A stretch of DNA of 64,000 bases from positions 1 to 64,000 of the IMG/VR virus record IMGVR_UViG_3300035670_000151; one strand, 5' to 3'. Position numbers and translations under genes: made by a program. This document shows positions 4,634 to 35,037 of this stretch, piece after piece. This DNA comes from an uncultured virus (IMG/VR IMGVR_UViG_3300035670_000151). Taxonomy: Duplodnaviria > Heunggongvirae > Uroviricota > Caudoviricetes. The first letter of the stretch is position 1; each line of letters starts with the position of its first letter. The notes beneath the pieces were generated by a model. That model was not told the origin of the DNA. It made no database searches and saw nothing but the letters and a program-made list of their open reading frames with translations.

Positions 4634-5026
4634 TTGGTTTCGCACGATCTACATAATTTAGCATTAATTAGGCTAATAGCGGAAGGCAAGTCATGGGTGC
4701 CAACTAACCGTGAACTATATAAGGTGATAGACTTTCTTAGAGGCGATGATTTCATGGCCTTTAAGATATACGAAGATGACGTAAATAAATGGCCCGGTGC
4801 CGAATACACTTTCTATAGAGACAGTAAAAACCGCCACAAGATCGGCAGTGTAGCTTTCTACGACAAAGGCCATGACAGCAGTTATACCCATGCTGACGAG
4901 GTAGAACAATGGAAGATAGAAGAAGCAATAGCCAAGCTGAAAGAACCGTCTACTGCAACATTATCTTCCAAGATCAAGTGGCATGTGGGTTTGGCTGTGA
5001 AATCATCACTCTCCCCTACAGCGTAG
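4634..5026 (+). CDS. hypothetical protein
   Basis: ORF lying between repeat blocks. Confidence 0.55.
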   Translation: MVSHDLHNLALIRLIAEGKSWVPTNRELYKVIDFLRGDDFMAFKIYEDDVNKWPGAEYTFYRDSKNRHKIGSVAFYDKGHDSSYTHADEVEQWKIEEAIAKLKEPSTATLSSKIKWHVGLAVKSSLSPTA

Positions 5027-5394
5027 TAGCAGCGGGTTGTAGCGTTATCCGGCAAGCTCTACCCGAACGGATAGGCTATGTCCTAGCATTCCAGTATCAT
5101 CACTTTAGAACCGGCAAGGTTGTGACTTTGGATCGCTGGAAATTGGGACTTGAGAACCGCTACTTTTGGGAACCGGCTGACTTCCAATTTTGGGAACCGG
5201 CTGGAAATCAATATAGACTTTTCAAGCCGGGTGAACTGACCCTGTTCATGGCGGGGAGGGTCGGCAGATAAGGTTAGTGCCCTATTTAATCCCGTTCCTA
5301 GAAAATAAATAGTTCGCGATATGGCCCTGATTATGTTACCCCGTAAGGGCAGCGAATCGGGGTGATTCGCGTTATTTAATGTGGGGTTAAATAG

Positions 5395-19995: not shown

Positions 19996-20535
19996 TTAGC
20001 GGGGCGGAGCCTTGGCAGCGCTGCGACGTTCGGTAGGACCGCCCGGTTTGCCCTTTGGAGCCTCAGGAGCGACCGGGACAGGCTGTTCCGCGATCAGTTC
20101 CACCCGGCCAGCCGGGAAGACCTTAGCGTCCTTGAGAGCGCCTTCCTTGGAAAGGACAGTCGGCATGATCCCGATGAGGGTAAGGCCGGTGACGATTTCG
20201 GTGCGGGTGCCGATAATGCCTTCAAAGCCGGTGATGGTGTCCTTGACCTTCGCGCCCATGGTGAACGCGCTAAAGTGGGCGTTAGGCTCGATACAAGCCA
20301 TACGCCCCTTTTCGATCACCGTCAGGCGCAGGATATCGAAAACGAAAGCATCCTTGGGGTTGCCGTTATCATCCAAGCTGGTCGGAGATACCTCGATACG
20401 GTCGCAACCGTGAAGGTGATAGTCGCGAGCATAAGCAATGCCCTCAAAACCGGTAACTACGTCCTTAACGTAGTCGCCAAGTTCGACACCGGCATTGACG
20501 GGAAGCTCTTGCTTCTTCTTACCCAAAAGACCCAT
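19996..20535 (-). CDS. protein with two tandem SH3-like repeats
   Basis: G..VKD.(V/I)TGFEGI twice; host-like codons. Confidence 0.8.
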   Translation of the reverse strand: MGLLGKKKQELPVNAGVELGDYVKDVVTGFEGIAYARDYHLHGCDRIEVSPTSLDDNGNPKDAFVFDILRLTVIEKGRMACIEPNAHFSAFTMGAKVKDTITGFEGIIGTRTEIVTGLTLIGIMPTVLSKEGALKDAKVFPAGRVELIAEQPVPVAPEAPKGKPGGPTERRSAAKAPPR

Positions 20536-20548
20536 TTAGTAAGACTCC

Positions 20549-20571
20549 AAAAAAAGGCCCCGAAGGGCCTA
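20549..20571 (-). terminator. intrinsic terminator of the RNA operon
   Basis: AGGCCC-TTCG-GGGCCT followed by T-tract. Confidence 0.8.
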
Positions 20572-20728
20572 GGTTAGTCGAAAGGCTAGGTTGCGACACC
20601 GAAGGCCAGTCATATAACGCTGCATATTGAGGGCTTTTACCCCACCGTCCATTAACTACCCACATGCAAGAGGGTATGTCTAGGTGTTTTCTCGCGGATG
20701 GAGACGCCCGCGAAGTTGGCTCTGAAAC
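20572..20728 (-). ncRNA. structured pseudoknotted RNA, possibly manA-like
   Basis: TCGCGG/CCGCGA, ACACC/GGTGT, TACCC/GGGTA stems; loop TGCAT complementary to ATGCA; no ORF. Confidence 0.5.
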
Positions 20729-20729
20729 T

Positions 20730-20813
20730 TGGTGCCCTCTCTCGGACTCGAACCGAGACGGATCAACCGGCAGATTTTAAGTCTGCTGCGCCTACCAATT
20801 ACGCCAAGAGGGC
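20730..20813 (-). tRNA. tRNA-Leu(TAA)
   Basis: Class II cloverleaf, CCA. Confidence 0.93.
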
Positions 20814-20936
20814 TTGGTAGGTCATAACGTAAGAAAATACATAACACCCCACTTAATAAAGAAAGAATACGGATCGACAGCTTTTGGGCAAAAGCAAATT
20901 GAAGAACCAACCCGTATTCTATCACTACTAAGTAAG

Positions 20937-21013
20937 TGGTGGACCCTCTGGGATTCGAACCCAGCACCTACAGATTAAAAGTCCGTCGCTCTAACCAAAT
21001 GAGCTAAGGGTCC
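20937..21013 (-). tRNA. tRNA-Lys(TTT)
   Basis: Cloverleaf, loop CTTTTAA, CCA. Confidence 0.94.
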
Positions 21014-21019
21014 ACTAAG

Positions 21020-21220
21020 AAGGGGAAGTTTATCAGGTCTATAACCTTTCTAGCTTCCCCTAATCATAGCTAGCGTAAATCATCGCTCCTAACACTATGG
21101 ATTAGGTTCACGTAGGAGCCTTGCTTAGGGGCTTGCCTCTATCGCTGGATTTCAGCCCACCGATAATGTGAAACTTAACAAGGTTGAAACATGACAATGT
21201 GCAGACCATCATGTTTCAAT
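21020..21220 (-). ncRNA. structured inter-tRNA RNA
   Basis: 11-bp hairpin TTGAAACATGA/TCATGTTTCAA; GCTCCTA/TAGGAGC pairing; AGGGGAAG/CTTCCCCT. Confidence 0.45.
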
Positions 21221-21229
21221 GTTATTAAG

Positions 21230-21339
21230 TGGCGGGACGGGGAGGGATCGAACCTCCGACTATCTGGCCTTGTCTTGGGGTCCATCACCCTCAAAGGGCT
21301 TAGACAAGGTTTCGTCTTCTACCGCTGAATTACCGTCCC
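21230..21339 (-). ncRNA. tRNA-like RNA with the anticodon arm replaced by a long stem
   Basis: Acceptor GGGACGG/CCGTCCC-G-CCA, D and T arms present, CCTTGTCT/AGACAAGG insert. Confidence 0.75.
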
Positions 21340-21341
21340 GT

Positions 21342-21438
21342 TGGAAGCGCGAGAGGGATTCAAACCCCCGTCTTCAATCCTCCGAAAGCTGTTTTGTCTG
21401 CATACTTCTGTCCAGAAGCACACTCAAACTACCGCGCT
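21342..21438 (-). ncRNA. tRNA-like RNA with expanded D arm and weak anticodon arm
   Basis: AGCGCGG/TCGCGCT-T-CCA, T arm GGGGG-TTTGAAT-CCCTC, extra GTGCTTCTG/CAGAAGTAT stem. Confidence 0.65.
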
Positions 21439-21439
21439 A

Positions 21440-21517
21440 TGGGGCCTTAGGGTTGGATTCGAACCAACGACCTTCCTTATTTATCGGACGCTCTAACCGG
21501 ACTGAGCTACATAGGCC
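21440..21517 (-). ncRNA. tRNA-like RNA with degenerate anticodon arm
   Basis: Canonical D and T arms, CCA; anticodon arm TCC-GATAAATAA-GGA. Confidence 0.7.
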
Positions 21518-21518
21518 A

Positions 21519-21567
21519 TGGTGGGGAAACCGAGCGGTCAGACCAATGACTTTACGCGATTATCCCC
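21519..21567 (-). ncRNA. 49-nt CCA-ended minihelix
   Basis: GGGGATAATCG…CGGTTTCCCC-ACCA. Confidence 0.5.
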
Positions 21568-21574
21568 ATATGTA

Positions 21575-22395
21575 ATTAGCAAGCTGAGAATACACTTACT
21601 AAGGGCAGTCTTAAACCCCTTATTGTTTAGGGCCTTTTCCACTATAACCCGGTCAAGGTATCATAGTAACTACCAACACCGCCATTTTATTAATCGCTGG
21701 CATTTGCGATATCACTACAAGCTACTCATAGTATCTTAATCCCATTGAAGTTTTACCTCCATTAAGCTCCCGCTAAAGAGCAATGAGTTCTTCCACTACA
21801 AACAATCCATCCTTGCGAGACTTCATGCCCCCACTCTAGGTAGGGCTTAGGTGCCTTTCACTTATAGCTGGACAAGGCTTTGCGTTGATGAATCAACTGC
21901 TGGATTTGAACCAACAATCAATGGATTAAGAGTCCATCGCATTACCGTTATGCTAAGTTGTTTCCAGTTAAGACGTGCTTGTCCAATGGTATCATTCCCT
22001 TTTGGGGAACAACATGCCACACGCCTCATGTCTTTCGCCTTGCGGGCTACTCAACGGTTACGTAAAGTGTCTCCACCTTTGGTAACTGGCTAATGCTCTT
22101 CCACGCTAATGGTCGAACTATTACCCTTATGGTTCACTATCGACTTCGAATAAGTTTTGCTTGGTGCAGGTGTTTGCGACTTCACTAGCTCACCGATTAG
22201 CTCTGCTAGTTATCCTTTCGGACCTAAAACCCTTATCCTTCAATCTATCCCCTACTTGTATAGAGGAACCTTTCGGTCAGTTCCATGTTGCTTAAGTTGA
22301 CCTATTACTAGGCGGCTTGGTTTGGCTCCTAACCTTTCACCAGATTACTCTAGCTTATCCGCTTCAAGCAGCGACCGGTTCGTTTCCTTGCCGGT
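21575..22395 (-). ncRNA. GOLLD-like giant ncRNA (~820 nt) with an embedded tRNA
   Basis: ORF-free, many GNRA-capped hairpins, GTAACCGTTGAGTAGCCCGCAAGGCGAAAG and GAAAGGCAC segments, terminal hairpin AGTAAG-TGTATTCTCAG-CTTGCT, own promoter, tRNA-cluster context; recognised from memory of the family. Confidence 0.75.
21891..21962 (-). tRNA. tRNA-Lys(CTT) embedded in the GOLLD-like RNA, no CCA
   Basis: ATGGA-CTCTTAA-TCCAT, D and T arms intact, imperfect acceptor stem. Confidence 0.75.
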
Positions 22396-22401
22396 GATCT
22401 C

Positions 22402-22430
22402 TATCTAGGCGACGAATCGATTCGGTGCAA
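22402..22430 (-). promoter_or_regulatory. promoter of the GOLLD/tRNA operon with overlapping CGAATCG/CGATTCG
   Basis: TTGCAC-N17-TAGATA. Confidence 0.8.
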
Positions 22431-22511
22431 GAGAAAAATGCACCAAGCCCAAACTTTTTTTCTTGGCCCTGATCTTATATTTAATCTAGTATTATTTGAT
22501 TAAGGTCAAAT

Positions 22512-22540
22512 AAAAACGGGGCCGTTAAGCCCCGTTTCTA
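22512..22540 (-). terminator. terminator after terC
   Basis: AAACGGGGC-TTAACG-GCCCCGTTTTT. Confidence 0.75.
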
Positions 22541-22548
22541 TTAGCTTA

Positions 22549-23148
22549 TTAGGAAGTCCAAGACACGATGACTGGAACGTCCTGATAGATCAGATGACCC
22601 GCGATATAGAGGACCAGCAGCAAGCCGAACCAAGCCAGCCAACGATACTTCTCAATGAGTCTCGCTACCGCATTGGCAGCAAAGATCATGATGAAGATCG
22701 ACAACACGATACCGAAGATGAGCGCGAAGTAATGATCCCCGGCAGCACCAGCAACGGCAAGAATGTTATCGATGGACATCGAAAGATCGGCAAGAGCAAC
22801 GGCGAAGAGTGCGGAACGATAGTTCGCAGCAGCCGTTACGTTCTCCGTGCTACCATCAACGATACCATTGTCCCTGATATCCTTGAACATACCCCACGCC
22901 ACATAGAGCAGGGCAAGACCACCGGCGAGTCGGATACCGGGAATCTGTAGCAGGTAGGTCGCGAGGAACAGCAGAACGATGCGGAAACCTGCGGCCATGA
23001 ACATGCCGTATTTGATGACCTTCTTACGCTGTTCGGCGGGAAGGCTGGCGGCTTTTGCCCCGATAATAACGGCGTTATCACCGGAGAGAACGATGTCCAG
23101 CAGAACGATACTACCGAACGTCATCAGGTTAGCAAGTAACCATTCCAT
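22549..23148 (-). CDS. terC: TerC/YjbE family membrane protein
   Basis: DIVLSGDNA.II, ADLSMSIDN.LAVAGAA; start 23148 overlaps the terB stop (TAATG). Confidence 0.92.
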   Translation of the reverse strand: MEWLLANLMTFGSIVLLDIVLSGDNAVIIGAKAASLPAEQRKKVIKYGMFMAAGFRIVLLFLATYLLQIPGIRLAGGLALLYVAWGMFKDIRDNGIVDGSTENVTAAANYRSALFAVALADLSMSIDNILAVAGAAGDHYFALIFGIVLSIFIMIFAANAVARLIEKYRWLAWFGLLLVLYIAGHLIYQDVPVIVSWTS

Positions 23149-23594
23149 TATAGCGCATACTCCTGCGGGCGAAGACCGAGCTTGACGCAAATGGCCCGCG
23201 CCACCTGCTGTTCGGAGGGTTGGAACTCATTGTCGGCATTGGCCACGGCCAACATGCCAAGCATGATGACCTTTGCACCATCAGTGCCAGCAGCCTTTTC
23301 GATGCTCTCCATAAGAGCAACCTTACCAGCTACGGCAGAGAGGGACATTTCTTCGGCGCAGTCATCGATTGCCTTAGCAACCTCCGACGACTTGAAGGAA
23401 GGAAGTTTCTTGGCGATGACGCGGCCAAGAACCACCTTCTCTTCATCCGATACGTTGCCATCAGCGGCAGCGACCAGATAGGAAGCTTGGACGGTGCGAA
23501 TGAAAGTCGCCTTGTCGGACATGCGGCTAAGAGCCTTTTCAGCATCAGCCATGAAGTTGGAGGCGATGCCTTTGAGGCTATCGAGGAAACCCAT
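23148..23594 (-). CDS. terB: TerB-family protein
   Basis: LVAAADG.VS.EEK … VANAD.EF..SE…..IC..LGL. Confidence 0.9.
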   Translation of the reverse strand: MGFLDSLKGIASNFMADAEKALSRMSDKATFIRTVQASYLVAAADGNVSDEEKVVLGRVIAKKLPSFKSSEVAKAIDDCAEEMSLSAVAGKVALMESIEKAAGTDGAKVIMLGMLAVANADNEFQPSEQQVARAICVKLGLRPQEYAL

Positions 23595-23705
23595 ATTAAA
23601 CCCCGCTACTAAAAGGGGTAGTAGAAGCATTTCTTCCTACTTCTACTACCCCAAGGTTATTCAGAACGATACCAACTAACTAGGTTGGTGATGTATTGCC
23701 GGCGA

Positions 23706-24305
23706 TTAGTCGGCAATGGCCTTGTTGATGAGGGCCAGCGGTTCCATCGAGTCCGCTTCGGTGACGCTCACAACGTCCACGATGTCGAACTTGCCGGTCA
23801 ACTGGTCGTCCAGATGATCGAGATAGTTCCGCGCCGCCTTGTCGTCGCCGATCTGGATGAAGAGGAACGTCAGGTCTTCATCCTTCGCGATGTTGTTCGA
23901 AGCATCGGTGATGAGCTTGGCGACCAGCGCCTGATCGTTCGGCTCGCCATCGGTGAAGATGACGGCGAAGGTCTTCTTGCCGGTCTTCTTCTGCTTGTCG
24001 ATGGTCCACGCGATGGCATCATGCAGCGGGGTCGAACCACGCGGACCACGCGAAGCGAACAGCTTGTCGATGGTGGCGGACGTAACGCCTTCTTCGACTT
24101 CGAAGTTCGGGCCGAACACACCGACATCGATGCCGTCAGCGTCGAACGGTTCGATGGCGCGGATGAAGCCCAGCAGCGACTCTTGCATTTCCTGCCAGCG
24201 GGTCTTCCCCGGCATCTTGACGGACGGATTGCCCATCGAACCCGAAGCGTCGATCAGGGCAACGAAATCGAATTCAGATGCCGTTTCGGCGTTCAACTGA
24301 GTCAT
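23706..24305 (-). CDS. vWA-domain protein (Ter-associated)
   Basis: MIDAS DASGSM, GSTPL, IFTDGEP, FIQIG.D..A..YL..LDD. Confidence 0.92.
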   Translation of the reverse strand: MTQLNAETASEFDFVALIDASGSMGNPSVKMPGKTRWQEMQESLLGFIRAIEPFDADGIDVGVFGPNFEVEEGVTSATIDKLFASRGPRGSTPLHDAIAWTIDKQKKTGKKTFAVIFTDGEPNDQALVAKLITDASNNIAKDEDLTFLFIQIGDDKAARNYLDHLDDQLTGKFDIVDVVSVTEADSMEPLALINKAIAD

Positions 24306-26421: not shown

Positions 26422-26498
26422 TGGTGCGCGTTACAGGGATCGAACCCGTGGCCTGTCGGATTAGGGGCCGACTGCTCTACCAACTGAGCTAAACGCGC
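26422..26498 (-). tRNA. tRNA with an 8-nt anticodon loop (CCCCUAAU), identity undetermined
   Basis: Otherwise canonical 77-nt cloverleaf, stem GTCGG/CCGAC, CCA. Confidence 0.8.
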
Positions 26499-26531: not shown

Positions 26532-27107
26532 TCACGCAACCTTTGTTTCTGACATTCTTTTAACCGCTAGTCCTACTACGTCTTCTAGTCGATTCCACAG
26601 AAGAGCGTCTTTCGTTGTGTTTGTCATAAGAGGGCGGACATTATTAGAAAAATCCCCGAACTCTCTAATATACATTCCTAGTTGCTTGCTCTTATTGATT
26701 ACACTGAACTTCATATTAACAATACGATCAGCTACTTTAACCGGCGCTGCTGCGGGAAGTGCTGCTAGTTTTTTGTAGACGCTAGCATTGCGTTCCTTAC
26801 GATTGGCCCCTTCGCCAGTGCAAGCGAACACCATAGCAGCAATCTCAGAGCCGAAGCATTCGGCCAGCCTGTTAATAGACATATCGCAGTCTTCTAGGAC
26901 ATCGTGAAGCCATCCGCTAGCTCGATATTTAAAGTCATCGTAGCCATTTGCTACTAGAGTTTCTTCTACATGGGCTAGGTGGAAAGGATAAGGGAAGTCA
27001 CCATAACGCTGATCGCCATGAAGTCTAATAGCAAAAGAGCGGAAGTCTTCTATATAACCTTCTAATCTAGGTGTTGCAGGTGTTGTTAATAGAGTTATCA
27101 TTAGCAA
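26532..27107 (-). CDS. HD-domain (p)ppGpp hydrolase-like protein (SpoT/Mesh1 SAH)
   Basis: H..Q.YG..PY..HL..V, WLHDVLED, VKVADRI.N. Confidence 0.88.
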   Translation of the reverse strand: MLMITLLTTPATPRLEGYIEDFRSFAIRLHGDQRYGDFPYPFHLAHVEETLVANGYDDFKYRASGWLHDVLEDCDMSINRLAECFGSEIAAMVFACTGEGANRKERNASVYKKLAALPAAAPVKVADRIVNMKFSVINKSKQLGMYIREFGDFSNNVRPLMTNTTKDALLWNRLEDVVGLAVKRMSETKVA

Positions 27108-28001: not shown

Positions 28002-28416
28002 GGAGTTGCTTTCTTTCCATCATAATTAATTTGGGGTCGGGTGGTGGTTCGGGTAGCTTATCTGCCTTAGGCGGTGGGCGTTGACCCCAATCGACCGGTC
28101 TGGATGATACCGGGATAATCTTTTCTGGCTCAAATCGATATACGACTCTGCCTGTCTCTAGGCATCGATCACTTTTCTTTCGAGCTTCCAGAATTACCGA
28201 ACGCATATGGTGGAAGAAATGCTCATATTCCTCCCTACCATTTAACATTACACGCATCATATCGATGCGATACCCGTAGGTGTTGCTAGAGGCGTATTGC
28301 TCGACAACTCTTATGTTGATTTCTTGGTTTAGCTTATCTTCATAAGAGTCGACTTTAAGGTGCAGTTCTCTAGCAAGCTCCCTACAAAGGTCTTCCAGAA
28401 CTGGAGCGCTAGCCAA
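27982..28416 (-). CDS. hypothetical protein
   Basis: Overlapping operon packing. Confidence 0.7.
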   Translation of the reverse strand: MASAPVLEDLCRELARELHLKVDSYEDKLNQEINIRVVEQYASSNTYGYRIDMMRVMLNGREEYEHFFHHMRSVILEARKKSDRCLETGRVVYRFEPEKIIPVSSRPVDWGQRPPPKADKLPEPPPDPKLIMMERKQLHEYGRY

Positions 28417-28969
28417 GCTTCCCTACCTCGTCGCCAACCTTAGTCCAATCCTTGCGGTAGGTATTGCGGGCGAACATTTCTAGGTAAGGGCCGTCATAAA
28501 GCCGCTCGATAAAGTCATAGACTTCATCAGGCTTACGACTATGCTCTCTTACTGTTGATTGGAAGACCTGCCTAACGCCACGGTCTTTAACTCTAGGCGG
28601 ATTACCTCGACGCCCTAGTAGAACCATTTCCATACCGGCCCTAGTGTAGTAGCCGGTGGACATGTGTTTCTTGCCATGCTTGGTTAGCTTATCCCAAACG
28701 AAAGCAATTGACTTATAATCAAAGCCCCAAGCGTCCATTACTTCGAACGCTTCTGGAAGAAGGGGCTGATAAACCCACATTAAAAGAATAGAGTCTTTAG
28801 CAGCTACCTCTTTAACAGGTAGCGCACAAATGTCTGCGATAGACATTGTTTTATAATGCTTCGAAGGGGATTTATCTTCACCCTTGGCACTGTATGTTTT
28901 GAATGTCCAAGCCGGATCGGCGTAGATGACCGGGAACTTTCGGCCTTCCTCAATTAACTTATCTAACAA
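28409..28969 (-). CDS. MT-A70 family N6-adenine methyltransferase
   Basis: IYADPAW, HY.TM, L.MW, WGF.YK..AFVW.K, HSRKP, LEMFAR. Confidence 0.93.
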   Translation of the reverse strand: MLDKLIEEGRKFPVIYADPAWTFKTYSAKGEDKSPSKHYKTMSIADICALPVKEVAAKDSILLMWVYQPLLPEAFEVMDAWGFDYKSIAFVWDKLTKHGKKHMSTGYYTRAGMEMVLLGRRGNPPRVKDRGVRQVFQSTVREHSRKPDEVYDFIERLYDGPYLEMFARNTYRKDWTKVGDEVGKLG

Positions 28970-32582: not shown

Positions 32583-32665
32583 TGGAGCTAGTGGTGGGAT
32601 TCGAACCCACGATCTGGAATTCCGACTTACAAGATCGGTGCAATGGACCACTATGCGACACTAGC
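32583..32665 (-). tRNA. tRNA-Thr(TGT) with an 11-nt variable region
   Basis: Cloverleaf, CCA. Confidence 0.88.
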
Positions 32666-34961: not shown

Positions 34962-35037
34962 TGGTGGGGAAGGTTGGACTCGAACCAACGCACAAGCCCT
35001 AAAGTGGCTTTGCTCTATCCAACTGAGCTACTTCCCC
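34962..35037 (-). tRNA. aberrant tRNA, anticodon loop ACUUUAG (no U33)
   Basis: Perfect acceptor, D and T arms; AAGCC/GGCTT stem; CCA. Confidence 0.75.

Follow-up and report, generated by a model that had tools for sequence, protein, structure and literature searches.

We analysed a 64,000-nt stretch of DNA (the window; positions 1 to 64,000 of IMG/VR record IMGVR_UViG_3300035670_000151, an uncultured virus of the Caudoviricetes), in which four head-to-tail units with encoded CCA ends occupy the minus strand at 21230..21567, directly downstream of a GOLLD RNA. GOLLD is among the largest bacterial and phage RNAs, and to our knowledge it has no known function. We tentatively propose, with a confidence a little short of even, that the four units are tRNA-derived, non-decoding modules that are kept as RNase P/CCA processing marks and set the 3′ end of GOLLD. 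The preliminary description of this locus had reported four tandem CCA-ended units directly after a GOLLD-like RNA, and their anatomy, coordinates, and place were borne out by our reading of the sequence and by Rfam searches.

Unit 1 (21519..21567; like all units on the minus strand) is a 49-nt hairpin of the form GGGGA...UCCCC-ACCA with a 5-bp terminal stem. Its minimum-energy fold is one irregular 16-bp hairpin of −18.4 kcal/mol (z −2.92), and 3 of 200 shuffled sequences folded as well. It contains no T loop and gave no Rfam tRNA match. Unit 2 (21440..21517, 78 nt, CCCA end) is tRNA-like, with canonical D and T arms, the variable loop AGGUC, and an anticodon arm, UCC-GAUAAAUAA-GGA, that consists of a 3-bp stem and a 9-nt loop. 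It scored 33.4 bits with the Rfam tRNA model (RF00005), above the gathering score of 29. Its acceptor is imperfect in every register, with five good pairs, A.A, U.U, and G-C; the best register gives 6 of 8 pairs. Unit 3 (21342..21438, 97 nt, UCCA end) has all seven acceptor pairs, all five T-stem pairs, and the T loop UUUGAAU. It was aligned over its full length by the Rfam tRNA model with a D loop of 31 nt, as compared with the usual 7, which holds a hairpin of 8-10 bp; the score of 18.3 bits is below the threshold. Unit 4 (21230..21339, 110 nt, GCCA end) likewise has 7/7 acceptor and 5/5 T-stem pairs, and scored 36.9 bits, above the same gathering score. It contains 53 nt where a 17-nt anticodon arm belongs, and these can form an 8-bp stem, CCUUGUCU/AGACAAGG, with an inner hairpin. 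The tRNA-like fold that uses this stem is 5 kcal/mol above the minimum-energy fold. The spacers between units 1 and 2, 2 and 3, and 3 and 4 are U, U, and AC (1, 1, and 2 nt), the base at −1 is U before three units and C before the other, and NCCA terminates all four.

ARAGORN called 22 tRNA genes in the window and none within 21230-21567. A closing stem followed by NCCA is common by itself (132 found versus ~90 in random sequence), and unit 1 on its own makes a weak case. Since stem and NCCA alone are common, the array owes its significance to the Rfam scores of units 2 and 4, to the acceptor, T arm, and CCA of unit 3, and to the tight tandem order. Pairwise comparison revealed no parent tRNA for any unit, all scores being within background, and a direct-repeat search of the operon found nothing beyond likeness among T arms.

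We considered whether one or more units may be oddly shaped but working decoders, the best candidate being unit 3, which could be taken for a tRNA-Pro(CGG) whose D loop is enlarged. The 5-bp anticodon stem, 7-nt loop, and U33 of a decoder were not found together: units 1, 2, and 4 have no 7-nt loop and would be unable to decode, and unit 3 is weak in these features. The heptaloop of unit 3, UUCGGAG, differs by one base from UUUGGAG, the corresponding loop in the tRNA-Pro(UGG) that the phage encodes, its tRNA-like fold lies within 0.4 kcal/mol of the minimum-energy fold, and a variant allele from soil (X5, see below) retains CGG, with only two loop positions 3′ of the triplet altered. On the other hand, the stem that carries the heptaloop has two G.U pairs and a C.A mismatch in its five positions, C56 is missing from the T loop, which becomes UGCAAGU in the X5 allele, the D loop lacks the usual elbow partners, and the Rfam score is low. 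Decoding by any unit is thus very improbable.

The units belong to a ~1.9-kb non-coding stretch on the minus strand that comprises a promoter-like site, GOLLD, the four units, hairpins, tRNA-Lys, tRNA-Leu, and a terminator. The conserved 3′ domain of GOLLD (21581..22029) matched Rfam RF02032 with 183.6 bits over the full model (1-416), and the variable 5′ domain probably reaches to ~22395. A tRNA-Lys(CUU)-like domain without encoded CCA is embedded in GOLLD at 21890..21962 (ARAGORN; Rfam tRNA, 61.3 bits). The units are outside the family model, which ends at 21581 (position 416 of 416), and begin 13 nt beyond it. The linker between the model end and unit 1 (21568..21580, 13 nt) contains neither a T-run nor a terminator. 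Except for a terminator-like hairpin inside the embedded tRNA (21939-21919), no terminator was found between GOLLD and position 20570, where the intrinsic terminator that closes the operon (20549..20570) begins; it is the only convincing one. Downstream of the units lie a structured spacer of 216 nt (21014..21229; fold −70.9 kcal/mol, z −4.59, 0 of 200 shuffles as good) and two canonical tRNA genes with encoded CCA, tRNA-Lys(UUU) (20937..21013) and tRNA-Leu(UAA) (20730..20813), both detected by ARAGORN and Rfam. The promoter-like site (22402..22430), as read from the sequence, consists of TTGCAC, a 17-nt spacer with two GANTC sites, and TAGATA; it was absent from the list of a simple sigma-70 scan. 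A similar design, TTGAC..GAATCGAT..CCTAGAT, precedes the syntenic RNA region in a related phage, G001.

RNase P accepts minimal substrates that consist of a helix and NCCA. We propose that the four units would be transcribed with GOLLD and the two real tRNAs from one promoter, and that they keep the determinants of RNase P cleavage and 3′ trimming, namely a closing acceptor-like helix, mostly a T arm, and the encoded NCCA. RNase P would cleave each unit at its 5′ end. Cleavage at unit 1 would free GOLLD, which here has no terminator of its own, with a 13-nt tail. Each later cut would leave the preceding unit with a trailer of 1-2 nt, which exonucleases would trim to the CCA. Four small RNAs would result, if stable, with lengths of 49, 78, 97, and 110 nt. 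In this scheme the top half of each unit would be the main target of selection, and the lower half could freely be rebuilt, swapped, or lost. RCCA-dependent cleavage of small non-tRNA substrates by RNase P and RNase P processing of polycistronic tRNA transcripts are both described as established in the accessible parts of the literature (PMC12710915, PMC2190699).

Other GOLLD loci were surveyed with a pattern for the GOLLD 3′ end, which gave at least 119 matches in IMG/VR, of which the 80 with flanks were surveyed; a first DNA pattern had been too strict and matched only a contig identical to the genome of the window. All 20 survey loci checked with Rfam were GOLLD (156-328 bits). A T-rich run directly follows the GOLLD motif in 40 of the 80 loci, a same-strand tRNA called by ARAGORN starts 7-20 nt after it in 12, and neither is present in 28. 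One of these 28 loci, L148, contains a 113-nt Rfam tRNA match (752-864, 40 bits) that begins 7 nt after GOLLD and was not called by ARAGORN. This match seems to contain two T-arm-like modules, and a tRNA-Trp comes next. Including it, a tRNA or look-alike lies 7-20 nt after GOLLD in 13 of 80 loci, about one in six, and unit 1, which starts at nt 16 after the motif, occupies the same slot. In the Caulobacter phage BL57, GOLLD is directly followed by a hairpin and T-run that we read as a terminator, with no array.

Natural variation was read from the assembled contigs of four runs, with positions mapped by hand; stretches without cover were not counted as evidence (X7 covers only 21602-22372, and X17 is without coding flanks). 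The contigs X5 (soil DNA) and X6 (wastewater) come from studies other than the probable source study of the window. They share a joint, 21438->21518, at which 79 nt are gone; this is exactly unit 2 and one spacer U, lost at a 4-nt repeat. Units 1 and 3 are left intact by the deletion, and unit 2 is thus strain-variable in its presence. Unit 1 is identical in both contigs and the unit 3 allele in X6 is that of the window. Further joints (21006/7->21451-3) were dismissed, as they had short sides and involved tRNAs of other organisms.

The same deletion bears on the possibility that the interval is a plus-strand protein gene with only incidental likeness to tRNA. An open reading frame (21219-21575, 118 aa) does span the whole array. 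Pfam and PHROG searches (E up to 0.1), however, gave no match for it, the natural 79-nt deletion in X6 shifts the frame, and two units on the opposite strand pass the Rfam tRNA threshold. A protein gene is therefore scarcely credible.

X5 carries a different unit 3 allele between flanks that are 99.3% identical to the window (6 differences in 812 nt and 8 in 1151 nt). Its 265-nt piece covering 21174-21438 has 18 differences and two single-base gaps. Thirteen of these differences could be listed: one in the T loop of unit 4, four in the T loop of unit 3, two in the heptaloop, and six in the 3′ strand of the inserted hairpin; the other five lie within 30 nt of an alignment end, so that compensation on the 5′ strand of the unit 3 hairpin is out of view. 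Seven of the 13 are in loops; the CCA and the acceptor, D, T, and anticodon-like stems are all free of listed changes. The match ends at 21174, the foot of a near-perfect 56-nt hairpin (21229-21174) in the structured spacer, and 150 unlike bases follow. Unit 1 has no change and unit 4 has one, which is about what the 99.3% identity of the flanks predicts. These data indicate that the region evolves by whole structural modules and that its variation follows the unit borders. In a metatranscriptome run, two exact 151-nt contigs span the borders of unit 1 with GOLLD (21527-21677) and of unit 3 with unit 2 (21361-21511), which hints weakly at co-transcription.

The window, which contains genes for terminase, portal, major head, and tape-measure proteins, belongs to the genome of an uncultured tailed phage. 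The record of this genome has 72 kb, and an identical 108-kb contig is also present in IMG/VR. Portals of Rhizobium RHEph10-like, SSU5-like, and Pseudomonas Nickievirus phages share 44-50% identity with the portal of the window; judged by this protein (~50% identical), the phage is a distant relative of the SSU5 group. Protein-anchored scans of IMG/VR for homologues yielded only the identical contig and one relative, G001. A scan of genome contigs gave portal relatives at 44-52% identity. A metagenome scan with a TerC alignment gave homologues of 38-45% identity, which were judged too distant as close phage relatives and left unused. BLAST against 50,697 phage records matched generic tRNA parts only, and GOLLD was not found in four cultured relatives by a search that did recover it in the window's own genome.

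The portal of G001 is 73% identical to that of the window, and the two genomes are collinear from 22561 onward. No GOLLD was detected in G001 by Rfam, with recovery of GOLLD in the genome of the window as positive control. At the same spot, after TerC and the similar promoter, G001 carries a tRNA look-alike with a 52-nt insert at the anticodon arm and a GCCA end (45 bits). It is followed by a 465-nt non-coding stretch (L016 2681-3145) with three long-stem domains, which folds with −174.2 kcal/mol (z −6.55; 0 of 100 shuffles as good) and has no Rfam match at E up to 1. This stretch may be an undescribed large RNA in the place of GOLLD. Because G001 has look-alikes without GOLLD, the link of the look-alikes to GOLLD is not obligatory.

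Six further aberrant tRNA-like genes are present inside the main tRNA array of G001 (L015 4640-6710), where Rfam gave 11 tRNA matches at E up to 0.05 (10 above the gathering score) as compared with six ARAGORN calls. One aberrant gene has a 32-nt D loop, and one has a 9-bp stem and inner hairpin at the anticodon position. Two have odd T loops, one of which, UGCAAGU, is the loop of the X5 unit 3 allele. One more look-alike, read by eye and without a tRNA match, has an anticodon stem capped by a GCAA tetraloop. One of the look-alikes begins 2 nt after tRNA-Leu, and an HNH-type reading frame (~4930-5340, read by eye) also lies inside this array. NCCA terminates six of the seven aberrant genes of G001 and 12 of 13 across the two phages. 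The sizes of the two designs are close in the window and G001, 31 versus 32 nt for the D loop and 53 versus 52 nt for the replacement of the anticodon arm. According to the preliminary description, the units also retain acceptor ends, CCA, and for the most part T arms, with decoding parts that have been remodelled into paired structure. The recurrence of the designs in G001 and the sparing of core stems and CCA in X5 uphold this statement.

The main tRNA array of the window contains two more aberrant NCCA-ended tRNA-like elements on the minus strand, found with a script and read by eye. The element at 33828-33747 lacks a D arm and has a canonical T arm and a CUACGAA loop that resembles the one in an Arg(ACG) tRNA, and the element at 33602-33529 has the T loop GGCAGAA, close to GGCAGAG of a G001 element. 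Neither was reported by Rfam (E up to 0.5) or ARAGORN.

Several observations weigh against retention of the units as processing marks. Unit 2 is dispensable in nature and its acceptor stem has two mismatches. Unit 1 lacks a T loop and has modest fold support. Since the changes in units 1 and 4 match the expectation from the flanks, no constraint is shown on these two units. No recognisable orthologue of units 1-4 was found in G001, with all scores within background. A cut at unit 1 alone is enough to free GOLLD, and the retention of four units is left unexplained. RNA starts and ends are not visible in assembled contigs, so that no RNA ends were observed. Finally, CCA is encoded in all 21 free-standing tRNA genes of the window; its presence in all four units is for this reason less telling than the preliminary description had taken it to be, and could reflect mere youth of the units.

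Many of these observations are shared with the alternative that the units are decaying pseudo-tRNA genes without a function of their own, young leftovers of the fast gain, loss, and recombination that characterise phage tRNA arrays. The presence or absence of unit 2 among near-identical strains together with its acceptor mismatches, the lack of G001 orthologues, the neutral rate of change in units 1 and 4, and CCA as the default all agree with decay. So do the HNH endonuclease genes in or near the arrays, and a 39-nt hairpin in the structured spacer (21060-21022), closed by GGGGAAG/CUUCCCC, which is without CCA and resembles an acceptor stem that has lost it. However, helices should be broken by random decay, and the appearance of an 8-bp stem and an 8-10-bp hairpin where arms are normally located is not expected from it. 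In addition, units 3 and 4 retain complete acceptor and T-stem pairing, the same two designs of similar size recur in G001, and the X5 allele of unit 3 alters loops and the insert but no visible core stem position. We therefore regard decay as unlikely, while taking it seriously. Remodelling as opposed to simple decay, as argued in the preliminary description, is in this way supported in part: the new helices and the absence of changes from core stems favour it, whereas the dispensability of unit 2 and the missing orthologues leave decay some weight.

The released RNAs may instead be functional tRNA mimics, either sponges for defence enzymes that read the acceptor or CCA, or tRNA scaffolds that stabilise variable hairpins, display them, and perhaps dock to GOLLD. 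Candidate targets of such sponges would be the toxSAS enzymes CapRel/FaRel2, MenT, or CCA-end nucleases. FaRel2 is a toxSAS toxin that pyrophosphorylates CCA; according to the available text on it, a synthetic acceptor/T minihelix is an efficient substrate, acceptor pairs 1, 2, 4, and 5 are read, and a Small Alarmone Hydrolase (SAH) of SSU5 removes the modification from tRNA (PMC11559606). The phage of the window, as a distant SSU5-group relative, encodes 5 kb away a 191-aa HD-domain protein of the RelA/SpoT hydrolase type (26532-27107, minus strand). Its PDB matches are Rel/SpoT hydrolase domains, Mesh1, and a Small Alarmone Hydrolase. A function as phage alarmone hydrolase is probable, and phages of Caulobacter, Pseudomonas, Vibrio, and Nodularia encode homologues. 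The presence of this hydrolase is context for a decoy role and not evidence, and such HD hydrolases occur in many large phages regardless of arrays. The mimic reading would account for lower halves that vary under tops that are kept. The remodelled loops of relatives also carry GCAA tetraloop-like caps, and tetraloop-receptor contacts build the GOLLD cages, as stated in the accessible portion of a review (PMC12990946). Against mimics, unit 2 is dispensable, the "cargo" of unit 3 depends on the strain, and no orthologue is conserved in G001. Taken together, functional mimicry is rather doubtful. Decoys for anticodon nucleases, which the preliminary description had listed, appear implausible, as units 1, 2, and 4 offer no anticodon loop. 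A still more speculative extension, which we consider distinctly unlikely, is a phage counter-defence RNA class in which CCA-ended tRNA tops released from the GOLLD operon would sponge acceptor-attacking enzymes alongside an alarmone-hydrolase-type enzyme, and exchangeable lower halves would tune the targets or dock the RNAs to the GOLLD cage.

Other features surround the operon. A cluster of TerC, TerB, and VWA-domain genes (22549-24305, minus strand) lies directly upstream, and TerC and the frames next to it have conserved counterparts in G001. The GANTC sites in the promoter-like motifs may be connected with an MT-A70 family methyltransferase gene (28409-28969, minus strand). The window has three Lys tRNA genes, including the copy embedded in GOLLD. 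The second tRNA-Lys(UUU) (34962-35037, minus strand) has the anticodon loop ACUUUAG, with C at the near-universal U33 position, and its acceptor GGGGAAG/CUUCCCC recurs in the 39-nt spacer hairpin and in a G001 look-alike. A tRNA at 26422-26498 (minus strand; Rfam tRNA, 57.3 bits) has an 8-nt anticodon loop, for which ARAGORN gave the four-base anticodon "ccta", and could be an amber-type or quadruplet-reading suppressor. tRNA-Thr(UGU) (32583-32665, minus strand, 83 nt) has a variable region that is unusually long for class I.

The 3′ end of this GOLLD is seemingly defined by tRNA look-alikes, which offers a concrete and testable link between GOLLD maturation and the tRNA-processing machinery; the occurrence of a tRNA or look-alike in the same slot of about one in six surveyed loci offers a link of this kind as well. 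Recent cryo-EM work found that GOLLD forms cages, and its authors, in the part available, speculate on tRNA cargo. The units add to the growing number of anticodon-less, CCA-ended phage RNAs that escape standard tRNA finders. If any unit does act as a decoy for CCA-targeting defence toxins, it would represent a new kind of RNA-based counter-defence; if not, the units still matter for annotation and for understanding the turnover of phage tRNA arrays.

Among known systems, the tRNA-like domain of tmRNA and YrlA resemble unit 4 in joining an acceptor/T module to a non-tRNA extension at the place of the anticodon arm. The units have no tag reading frame and no Ro-binding stem, and their termini are arranged unlike those of YrlA. 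In the window, ARAGORN did not detect a tmRNA, Rfam reached at best 7.1 bits for the tmRNA family versus a gathering score of 47, YrlA (RF02553) gave no match at E up to 10 in 20500-22800, and the only YrlA match in G001 had 19.8 bits versus a gathering score of 69. The comparison with YrlA and tmRNA made in the preliminary description was thus not substantiated by ARAGORN or Rfam. In phage T4, the tRNA cluster encodes the stable RNAs C and D (species 1 and 2); these and the M3 hairpin RNA of phi80 are small stable phage RNAs of unknown function that are co-transcribed with tRNAs and matured by tRNA-processing enzymes; we know of none that is linked to GOLLD. Morgado et al. (2020) reportedly described tRNAs embedded in or adjacent to GOLLD.

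Synthetic acceptor/T minihelices, which FaRel2 accepts according to the text available (PMC11559606), are like unit 1 and the upper halves of units 2-4 in consisting of a helix and NCCA. They are ~35 nt long with 12 bp and a T loop, whereas unit 1 is 49 nt, irregular, and without a T loop. The plant-mitochondrial t-elements are tRNA-like structures in longer transcripts at which tRNA-processing enzymes make the ends (Forner et al. 2007, PMC1920247), and the units are proposed to act alike. As far as the accessible text describes them, t-elements differ from the units in being organellar and in flanking mRNAs; they do not occur in tandem, an encoded CCA is not among their defining features, and they are not homologous to the units. 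In the texts available to our literature search, in which most subscription journals were out of reach, CCA-ended tRNA-like genes without decoding ability were not described from phage tRNA arrays.

A further parallel is provided by GOLLD itself. In the available parts of the published work, GOLLD is found near tRNA islands and may embed tRNAs, and phage GOLLD lies by tRNA genes with a tRNA-like domain in its linker (Kretsch et al. 2025, PMC12286853; review, PMC12990946), an arrangement to which the present locus is alike. The GOLLD cases published in these sources involve ordinary tRNAs, whereas here the slot after GOLLD is occupied by four non-decoding look-alikes.

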